UHGV virus genome: UHGV-0183426
Source: a virus
Strand: one strand, 5' to 3'
DNA: 53,584 nucleotides
Positions 45,818 to 46,651 of the stretch are shown piece after piece. The position numbers were made by a program, and so were the translations under genes. The notes below the pieces were generated by a model. That model saw nothing but the letters and a program-made list of their open reading frames with translations, had not been told where the DNA came from and searched no databases. Numbering within the stretch: the stretch's first letter is position 1; each line of letters starts with the position of its first letter.

Positions 45818-46651
45818 CAATATTTATTGATGATATATACGCAAGCAACAAAACTTGCGCAGTATGTTAATACTTCCAACCAGTCGAATAGCTCTTTCAT
45901 TGTTTACCCTTCACATAATAGAAAGCGCCCAGGTAATAAGGACGATAACCAAAACCAACAGCGAACTTATAGCCATGATTAAGAAATCACTGTCAGACAT
46001 TGATAATACCCCTACGATAATTAACGCGGCGATACATACGAATAATACGGCTTCGATAACATCCATTAGCTCACCTATTGAGTCAGTGCTGTCATGGTAA
46101 GAACAATCGCAACAATCAGGAAAAAGAAATCAAGCCATTTCATTTTTTAAACTCCCGATACACATCAACGGCAATGACTGTAATAACAGCCACCAGCAAT
46201 AGCATATCGTATGCGTTCATGCTTTCACCTATACAACATTCTTCCACCAGAAATAGATAATGACGGCGACCAACGACCACCAGATGAGATCGTAAATATT
46301 CATGGTGAATACCTTCAGCTTTCAATGAATATCATGATCGCCAGCCATACAGCGACGCAGGCAGAAAGGATAATTAGCGGGTCAATCATATTTTCACCAT
46401 AGCCTGCAAATGTTCACGCCAATACCTACAATGAGCACCAATAACCAGATGAAATCGTAGGAGTTCATAATTTACTCTTTACGGTTATCAGCACGGCAAT
46501 AACAAATCCCACCATAAATACAGAAACACCGATTAATCCGGAGATGATGTAAGCGTCCATAATCAGCCTCGCATAGACATAATCACCATAAACAGGCAAA
46601 TAATGAATCCGAATGCCACGCCACCCATAAACGTTAATATTGACGCAATCA
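45818..46651 (-). other. tandem array of about 9 mini-ORFs (23-51 codons) encoding single-TM hydrophobic peptides
   Basis: manual translation gives back-to-back peptides, several starting MN(S/I/A)YD(F/L/M)...; coordinates +/-1. Confidence 0.45.

Follow-up and report, generated by a model that had tools for sequence, protein, structure and literature searches.

The 53,584-nucleotide (nt) virus genome UHGV-0183426, which is referred to in its full length as the window, represents a temperate siphophage of the mEpimmI group, an Escherichia coli phage. It carries on the minus strand, between the gene of an HEXXH protein and the small terminase gene (terS), a tandem array of nine very small open reading frames (ORFs; m1 to m9, positions 45,817 to 46,652). 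Judged from the sequence comparisons presented here, the units are very probably real, translated genes for membrane peptides, and an array of the same type was found in all 51 related genomes. The best overall explanation, in which we place slightly less than even confidence, is that of a late polycistronic array of micro-genes whose inner-membrane peptides would tune membrane energization and the lysis clock.

RESULTS

A tandem array of small ORFs in front of terS

All nine ORFs start with ATG, comprise 22 to 51 codons, and together occupy 92% of the interval that separates the HEXXH gene from terS. A Shine-Dalgarno (SD)-like motif is located at proper spacing in front of eight of them (GAGGT, GAGG, GGTG, AAGGT, AGGTG, GGGAG, AGGTG, and AAGGG). 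The junctions m2/m3 and m6/m7 are ATGA overlaps, spacers of 2 to 11 nt are present at the remaining ones, and the nonoverlapping stop codons fall within or shortly 5' of the SD of the next unit (GGTGA, TAGGTGA, and GAGGCTGA). A preliminary description of this DNA had placed such an array here, with coordinates given to within 1 nt, between lysis/HEXXH genes and the small terminase gene, and had proposed individual ATG codons for most of the ORFs, with overlapping or abutting stops and starts; all of this was recovered. Its size range of 23 to 51 codons was right at the upper bound, but the shortest peptide has 22 amino acids (aa). Six of the seven peptides that it quoted are exact, and the seventh (m7) ends with ...TALTQ and a stop codon instead of ...TALTNR.

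The probability of a chance occurrence was assessed with 1,000 dinucleotide-preserving shuffles of the region, in which hydrophobic ATG-started ORFs of at least 20 aa were counted. On average, the shuffles contained 2.4 such ORFs (maximum, 7) with a coverage of 26% (maximum, 70%), 0.3 of them (maximum, 3) with an SD, compared with the observed values of nine ORFs, 92%, and eight. By the same criterion, the opposite strand of the array region harbors none. The coding strand is T-rich, and the G+C content of the region (0.38 to 0.43 versus about 0.48) is low because the hydrophobic residues use T-rich codons.

Conservation, order, and selection in related phages

The comparison was based on the gp49-to-TerS gap of the window, seven GenBank relatives, and 44 IMG/VR contigs, i.e., 52 genomes with 45 distinct array sequences. 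Hydrophobic mini-ORFs were present in every genome (3 to 13 per array; median, 9), with a median length of 24 aa and in arrays of less than 1.2 kb, and none of the gaps is occupied by a single long gene. Since the region is not one long ORF in any of the 51 relatives, it is not a degenerate single gene, a possibility that the preliminary description had held up against its own proposal. Its claim of separate mini-genes for single-pass hydrophobic peptides is further sustained by purifying selection on each unit. In a more divergent ENA contig, whose neighboring protein is 61% identical, seven units are located where the gene caller had called none.

The 474 ORFs of the 52 genomes encode 188 distinct peptides, which were assigned to about 18 families in the collinear order [F9/F6/F15/F11]-F0a-[F12/F14]-F0b-F5-[F16]-F7-F3-F8-F2-F1 (one to three copies)-F10-[F4/F13]. 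Presence/absence variation on this fixed order results in 38 architectures. The families F3, F2, F0b, and F4/F13 are near-core, with representatives in 45 to 50 genomes, and the others are accessory: F3 (m6) was found in 50, F2 (m7) in 49, F0b (m4) in at least 45, and F0a (m2) in about 40 genomes, and the accessory cassette F12 (m3) was found in 6. SD-like sites precede 402 of the 474 ORFs, and 92% of the junctions either overlap or have a gap of at most 15 nt.

The ratio of nonsynonymous to synonymous polymorphism (pN/pS) ranges mostly from 0.08 to 0.4 per family, e.g., 0.26 for F0a, 0.27 for F3, and 0.13 for F2, with values of 0.6 to 0.7 in two small allele sets, and third-position changes are in excess. 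The pooled ratio is 0.25 in frame and rises to 0.91 and 1.49 upon a shift to either of the other two frames. The peptide of m4 is identical in 28 genomes and that of m9, which alternates with its paralog F13 and has the lowest ratio (0.08), is identical in 35.

A hydrophilic ORF of about 40 to 54 aa (...NEELK(M/I)ADEIRKALDAA...) is located at or near the array end in the IMG/VR relatives L017, L021, L036, and L056, so that the slot also takes nonmembrane cassettes; the m9-type unit is absent in L021, L036, and L056 and kept in L017. The array of IMGVR_UViG_2541047699_000012 (L032/L081) reads F9 F11 F0 F0 F3 F2 F1 F1 F4 and thus differs from that of the window.

Peptide architecture and predicted membrane insertion

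The architecture was determined for 168 unique peptides. An aspartate or glutamate is present in the N-terminal stub of 2 to 5 residues in 151 of them, and the first of these acidic residues occupies position 2, 3, or 5; an uncharged core with a median of 17 residues follows, and the tail of 0 to 8 residues is often basic. The mean net charge is -1.1 in the N-terminal and +0.43 in the C-terminal flank, but since lysine or arginine occurs in the C-terminal flank of only 91 of the 168 peptides, the basic tail holds on average and not for each unit. The grand average of hydropathy ranges from 0.8 to 2.2, and the hydrophobic moment ranges from 0.02 to 0.25, compared with 0.44 for the phenol-soluble modulin (PSM) PSM-alpha3.

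According to approximate insertion free energies, for which YpdK, KdpF, IbsC, and others served as references, m1, m2, m4, m7, and both halves of m8 group with established small inner-membrane proteins. Moments and energies together resemble those of YpdK, KdpF, and IbsC and not those of an amphipathic PSM. As is characteristic of small single-pass inner-membrane proteins, the units are shorter than 50 aa (except for the 51-aa fusion m8) and have one predicted transmembrane (TM) helix, a ribosome-binding site, and a conserved ORF. From the positive-inside rule and the analogy with the Pf3 coat protein, we infer a single-pass topology with the N terminus outside and the C terminus inside (N-out/C-in). 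In YidC substrates of the Pf3 coat protein and M13 procoat type, which were studied in the Kuhn laboratory, an arrangement like this one points to an N-out/C-in insertion that is powered by the membrane potential.

Duplication, fusion, and cassette exchange

The kinship of m3, m5, and m6, which the preliminary description had recognized by their common start MN(S/I/A)YD, is supported by alignment scores against composition-preserving shuffles (z values of 9.3 for m3-m6, 4.7 for m5-m6, and 3.2 for m3-m5), and m3 and m5 share a 36-nt direct repeat with 72% identity. A second group of paralogs comprises m7, the second half of m8 (m8b), and the families F8 and F1c of the relatives, with z values of 6.4 for m7-F1c, 5.8 for m7-F8, and 8.1 for m8b-F1c. 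The pair m9-F13 scored 13.3, and 11 of 153 pairs exceeded a z value of 4.

Unit m8 is a lineage-specific fusion and originated from a 1-nt deletion (GGGGT-ATTATCAATG versus GGAGTGATTATCAATG) that fuses F1a (MDVIEAV..., normally 24 aa) in frame with the next unit, as seen in an alignment with L054, L026, L009, and L001. Its second half is a recombinant of F1b (MSDSDF...) and F1c (...VLITWAL...), as in MagusPhagus, and F10 has been lost in the window. Only one further true fusion of two units was found among the 52 genomes. Judged from the sequence, the internal ATG at position 46,000 could still yield a 29-aa unit alone.

The m1 cassette is also present in about 90 genomes of the unrelated, lytic rV5-like Vequintavirus phages with a nucleotide identity of 90 to 95%, and the ORF is intact in all five aligned genomes. 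The homology between the window and the rV5-like phages is confined to AAACGAGGnTGATT...ATG...GAGGCTGA, i.e., exactly one SD-to-stop cassette that bears the SD for the next gene. The homolog is unannotated in FV3 and is bas50_0160 in a BASEL Vequintavirus, near-identical members of the 90% cluster are designated "hypothetical" in BASEL phages, and the same holds true for the exact m1 peptide in a few E. coli records. Searches of 50,697 phage genomes with distant blastn and tblastn found, of the nine units, only m1 outside the group, namely, in the rV5-like phages. A pattern scan of IMG/VR for m4 matched only contigs of the same phage group, and the GTDB species representatives contain no match for m4 or TerS. 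An exhaustive HMMER search with m8 against 1.84 billion representatives retrieved two short peptides as its hits, with lengths of 45 and 29 aa.

As read from these alignments, the array evolves by tandem duplication, unequal recombination of paralogous units, frameshift fusion, and SD-to-stop cassette exchange at conserved (G)AGGnTGA-nn-ATG junctions, and one cassette has moved between the mEpimmI group of temperate siphophages and the rV5-like myophages, which are virulent. The m1 cassette was additionally found in 11 "Campylobacter phage" records (MG0656xx; C5, C15, A12a, D#, and others). Record D# is classified as Vequintavirus, i.e., as an rV5-like coliphage, and is marked UNVERIFIED; the Campylobacter host labels of these records are probably wrong.

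Genomic context of the array

The nearest relatives of the window are MagusPhagus (92% identity), mEp010, mEp554, mEp044, mEp021, mEp515, and mEp013. Class II holin, lysozyme, Rz, a hairpin, the HEXXH protein, the array, TerS, TerL, and the portal protein follow each other on the minus strand and are all co-oriented (Table 1). The probable start of the endolysin (lysozyme) gives a Gly/Ala-rich N-terminal anchor that resembles a signal-anchor-release (SAR) domain; the ORF lister extended the gene to a TTG codon (190 aa), and the relatives have 163 aa annotated. By its sequence, the lysis cassette (positions 47,934 to 48,627, minus strand) looks like the pinholin/SAR-endolysin pair of phage 21. 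SAR endolysin/pinholin systems fire upon membrane depolarization, as in the lysis by phage 21 and P1.

The weak, terminator-like hairpin between Rz and the HEXXH gene is kept in mEp021 (L002, positions 3154 to 3186), where it is annotated as TERM_6, and was not called by a simple terminator scan of the window. Promoter- and terminator-like sites in and around the array were found at chance level (7 promoter-like sites versus 7.5 expected), for which such consensus scans are weak evidence, and an Rfam search of the region at an E value of ≤1 returned two subthreshold chance matches and no Rfam family. Phages with Sf6-type terminases package DNA by the headful mechanism, and the pac site is usually located within terS and not replaced by a cos site upstream of it. 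Given the Sf6-type TerS of the window, no cos site is required in the gap, and this explanation of the gap was set aside. Because all genes are co-oriented, promoter- and terminator-like sites do not exceed chance, and no cos site is needed, the array is probably part of the late transcript, as far as can be judged from the sequence.

The HEXXH protein has the invariant motif H79-E80-x-x-H83, and one source labels a homolog as "PolyVal metallopeptidase." Its AlphaFold model (mean pLDDT confidence score, 76) had no fold match in the PDB, and a PDB sequence search was negative. Homologs with 34 to 42% identity are present in P22-like phages, including those with 42% identity in ST64T and epsilon34-type phages, which occupy the same postlysis slot. 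In ST64T, the homolog is directly followed by Orf-134 and then by gp3, and an array is absent; in P22, it lies in a stretch without an annotated coding sequence and adjoins the sieA promoter. Since the homolog occupies this slot in P22-like phages that have no array, a functional tie between the HEXXH gene and the array was rejected.

In mEp013 (L007, positions 2685 to 3170), an inserted HNH endonuclease gene separates the HEXXH gene from the array, and in an ENA contig (L057, positions 2252 to 2773), such a gene has been inserted between the endolysin and Rz genes. A 64-aa ORF with two TM domains (positions 48,912 to 49,106, minus strand) is located just upstream of the holin gene of the window. 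Solitary small hydrophobic ORFs with SD-like sites were detected outside larger ORFs at positions 8030 to 8149 (minus strand, 39 aa), 8187 to 8270 (minus strand, 27 aa), 13,624 to 13,725 (plus strand, 33 aa), and 29,756 to 29,830 (plus strand, 24 aa), and none of those elsewhere in the window is arranged as an array.

TABLE 1 Units of the array and flanking features of the window
Feature	Family or assignment	Position	Strand	Product	Signals and remarks
m1	F9	46563-46652	-	MIASILTFMGGVAFGFIICLFMVIMSMRG, 29 aa	SD GAGGT; stop within GAGGCTGA, the source of the SD for m2
m2	F0a	46465-46560	-	MDAYIISGLIGVSVFMVGFVIAVLITVKSKL, 31 aa	SD GAGG; stop overlaps m3 start (ATGA)
m3	F12	46394-46468	-	MNSYDFIWLLVLIVGIGVNICRLW, 24 aa	Weak SD AAGAG; ATGA-coupled to m2
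m4	F0b	46315-46389	-	MIDPLIILSACVAVWLAIMIFIES, 24 aa	SD GGTG overlapping m3 stop (GGTGA)
m5	F5	46229-46303	-	MNIYDLIWWSLVAVIIYFWWKNVV, 24 aa	SD AAGGT; pN/pS, 0.29
m6	F3	46140-46220	-	MNAYDMLLLVAVITVIAVDVYREFKK, 26 aa	SD AGGTG; stop overlaps m7 start (ATGA)
m7	F2	46075-46143	-	MKWLDFFFLIVAIVLTMTALTQ, 22 aa	SD GGGAG
m8	F1 fusion	45911-46066	-	51 aa	Two hydrophobic segments
m9	F4	45817-45900	-	MKELFDWLEVLTYCASFVACVYIINKY, 27 aa	SD AAGGG; GAGAGGTGAAAT-ATG of terS follows
Small terminase	Pfam Sf6_terminase	45321-45806	-		Directly downstream of the array
Large terminase		43840-45324	-		Follows the small terminase
HEXXH protein	PHROG 1365 (unknown function)	46655-47197	-	180 aa	Last codons (AAACGAGGTTGA) are the source of the SD for m1
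Weak hairpin with T-run		47270-47300	-		GAAACGG...CGCCGTTTTCAGTGTTTTAT; between Rz and the HEXXH gene
Class II holin		48427-48627	-	66 aa	Two TM domains; adjoins the endolysin gene

DISCUSSION

Comparison with known small membrane proteins

Scans of the nine peptides against Pfam, PHROGs, NCBIfam, and PADLOC resulted in no significant match, and the best subsignificant ones were phrog_6302 (unknown function; E value of 0.0011) for m1 and the holin family phrog_1350 (E value of 0.1) for m8. The closest counterparts in general appearance are YohP (27 aa), YpdK (23 aa), and KdpF (29 aa) of E. coli and the MgtR/MgtS/AcrZ class, which likewise consist of one TM helix, have their own SD, and are missed by annotation. 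These bacterial small membrane proteins are solitary, chromosomally encoded, and often stress induced, whereas the array comprises 3 to 13 chained units in a phage late operon that are shuffled as cassettes, and no sequence homology of the units to NCBIfam, Pfam, or PHROG families was found. With the Pf3 coat protein and M13 procoat, the units share, on average, an acidic N-terminal tail in front of a hydrophobic helix and basic residues behind it, but they are half the size of the Pf3 coat (44 aa), which is a structural component of filamentous virions, and they belong to a tailed phage.

Back-to-back ORFs of 20 to 30 codons with individual SDs on one transcript are also found in the psm-alpha and leaderless bacteriocin operons. 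The peptides of both kinds of operon are amphipathic, often cationic, and exported, in contrast to the hydrophobic array peptides with their low moment and acidic N termini, and an assignment to such amphipathic secreted peptides was therefore rejected. A classification as lipoproteins (o-spanin or Cor/Llp type) was discarded as well, because a signal peptide and a lipobox are lacking: only m4 has an LSAC motif (residues 8 to 11), which follows an acidic N terminus without a basic n-region and would leave a mature part of 14 hydrophobic residues. The array is also no moron, since it lacks a promoter and a terminator of its own and its lower G+C content is explained by the T-rich hydrophobic codons.

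Possible functions of the array

As the sequence shows, the start of each unit is coupled to the preceding stop, so that ribosomes are passed along the array to the terminase gene. The peptides would be inserted N-out/C-in via YidC or via the signal recognition particle (SRP) route of other very small membrane proteins. During late infection they would build up in the inner membrane, where they would act by helix-helix contacts or by membrane loading. In this way they might tune the energization of the membrane, or contact pinholin/SAR domains directly, and hence influence the timing of the depolarization-triggered pinholin/SAR-endolysin lysis; the number and identity of the units would set the lysis clock. 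We prefer a role specifically in the lysis clock or in membrane energization from context, and do so more tentatively than the overall explanation, because a SAR-type lysis cassette belongs to the same operon, YohP sets a precedent (PMC12719787), and the number of units varies. Lysis regulators had also been among the proposals of the preliminary description and are a plausible function. The 27-aa single-helix protein YohP lowers the membrane potential when produced (PMC12719787), and it is inserted posttranslationally by SRP (PMC7549839).

Several observations weigh against this explanation. The weak conserved hairpin and the HEXXH gene lie between the lysis genes and the array, and in the rV5-like phages the m1 cassette is located among unrelated small genes and not beside lysis genes. 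The predicted insertion energies of m3, m5, m6, and m9 are marginal. The conservation of the units, with identical peptides in 28 and 35 genomes, exceeds the need of a generic membrane loading. Periodicity of the conserved positions along a helical face was detected in only 2 of 13 family sets (P < 0.05), and the variable positions are not clearly on one face and thus do not reveal a specific binding surface either. The only paper on the phage group, in which 16 structural proteins were determined by mass spectrometry of mEp021 virions, analyzed virion proteins alone and does not mention the array.

The same conservation could be read differently, namely, that each helix is the specific ligand of a different inner-membrane protein of the host, a competing phage, or a defense system. 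In that case, the array would amount to a collection of shuffled TM binders for superinfection exclusion at DNA entry, anti-defense, or host takeover, comparable to regulators of the MgtR, MgrB, and AcrZ type and to the single-gene-lysis peptides that bind MraY or MurJ. We regard this main rival as possible, although on balance unlikely. It would account for the strong purifying selection on each family, some of whose peptides are shared unchanged by dozens of genomes, for accessory presence/absence patterns that are typical of host interaction loci (38 architectures in 52 genomes), and for the recent transfer of one cassette into unrelated virulent phages. The slot between lysis and terminase genes harbors accessory genes in P22-like phages, with the P22 HEXXH homolog beside sieA, and the binding of small hydrophobic peptides to membrane proteins has ample precedent (PMC12648545 and PMC6813294). 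However, a promoter for expression in the lysogen is lacking, late expression fits exclusion or early anti-defense poorly, neither PADLOC nor any family library gave a match, and the helical-face periodicity is confined to the two family sets mentioned above. An extended version of this idea, which we consider unlikely, is that of a new accessory system, a hyperrecombining library of minimal TM helices in which each 22- to 30-aa unit is a dedicated binder or inhibitor of an inner-membrane target, such as DNA entry factors, membrane-embedded defense effectors, or the phage's own pinholin or SAR domain. Units would gain new specificities when they are duplicated, form chimeras, or are swapped as self-contained SD-ORF-SD/stop cassettes, even between a temperate siphophage and a virulent myophage.

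The preliminary description had thought of toxin-like or holin/antiholin-like peptides, and both proposals fared poorly. Addiction peptides in the style of Ibs, Ldr, TisB, or Hok, which would be restrained by antisense RNAs and stabilize the prophage or kill the host, are suggested by a size and hydrophobicity like those of IbsC and similar toxins and by the tandem organization of the ibsA-E/sibA-E and ldrA-D/rdlA-D loci of E. coli, whose paralogous genes encode hydrophobic inner-membrane peptides of 19 to 35 aa. Moreover, type I systems occur in prophages (PMC12648545). Each of these toxins nevertheless has its own transcription unit, an antisense RNA with its own promoter, and an SD-occluding leader, whereas the array units are translationally coupled in one polycistron by overlapping or closely spaced junctions with exposed, functional-looking SDs that leave no room for long structured leaders or antisense RNA genes. 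Promoter-like sites on the opposite strand are at chance level, an Rfam antitoxin RNA was not found, the hydrophobic moments are below those of TisB and ShoB, and a lysogen could hardly silence 9 to 13 toxins cotranslated with the terminase except by leaving the late operon untranscribed; we thus consider type I toxins very unlikely. Canonical holins or antiholins are more improbable still. The units do resemble the holins, antiholins, and accessory proteins of lysis cassettes as small late membrane proteins with a TM segment and a possible effect on timing, encoded in the same operon 0.8 to 1.7 kb downstream of the holin gene. But the cassette is already complete with holin, endolysin, and Rz, the canonical 66-aa holin is encoded beside the endolysin, and the numerous units are located outside this block, beyond Rz and the HEXXH gene. 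With 22 to 31 aa (51 aa in the fusion) and tails of 0 to 8 residues, they are also smaller than holins (about 60 to 150 aa; the smallest have about 57 to 70 aa) and lack the charged cytoplasmic C-terminal domain, and the best match to a holin model, that of phrog_1350, was insignificant and concerned only the fused m8. Least credible of all, and hardly to be expected, is that the peptides are irrelevant and that what counts is a DNA or RNA element, such as one for terminase recognition, or a relay of ORFs that sets the translation of TerS. The position directly upstream of terS, the translational coupling to it, and the variable copy number would fit such a function, but they are outweighed by the frame-specific purifying selection (0.25 versus 0.91 and 1.49), the conserved peptide architecture, and the conservation of m1 in phages with unrelated packaging genes. 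The TerS is furthermore of the Sf6 type, with pac usually within terS, and the region has no recurring DNA motif apart from the SD/stop junctions and the repeats within paralogous coding sequences.

Annotation gap and significance

The array has largely escaped gene calling and the protein databases. Six of the nine exact peptides are missing from a collection of 15 billion proteins, in which those shorter than 29 aa are absent, and the exact m2 and m8 peptides have been deposited as MAG TPA Caudoviricetes DAH35107 and DAH35109. The array is present in 35 of 5,426 complete E. coli genomes, and RefSeq calls zero to two units per prophage. A protein query with the concatenated array matched only two artifactual gene calls in which TGA is read as Trp: P0128 and P0129, from ENA contigs of 788 and 896 nt, are "proteins" of 165 to 166 aa that represent the array read through (ES-stop to ESW), due to the application of the wrong genetic code to short contigs.

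Small single-helix membrane proteins in bacteria and phages are already known. The array was not described in the paper on the mEpimmI group or in the searched reviews and preprints on small membrane proteins, and a literature search with the exact peptide strings retrieved no paper. Not described there is a conserved chain of 3 to 13 genes of 22 to 31 codons with a fixed order and variable content, and the same applies to the transfer of self-contained SD-ORF-SD/stop cassettes from one phage to an unrelated one.

Single-helix microproteins are a fast-growing and functionally obscure class, and nearly all known examples are encoded by solitary bacterial genes. The locus is a compact natural system in which the duplication, chimera formation, frameshift fusion, and horizontal transfer of genes with 22 to 30 codons can be read in about 50 genomes, and it exposes a systematic annotation gap. 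For genetic tests, isolated phages and lysogens of the group are available (mEp021, mEp010, and others). If the peptides indeed tune the clock or bind host proteins, the array would provide a new handle on lysis timing and a source of minimal TM inhibitors.

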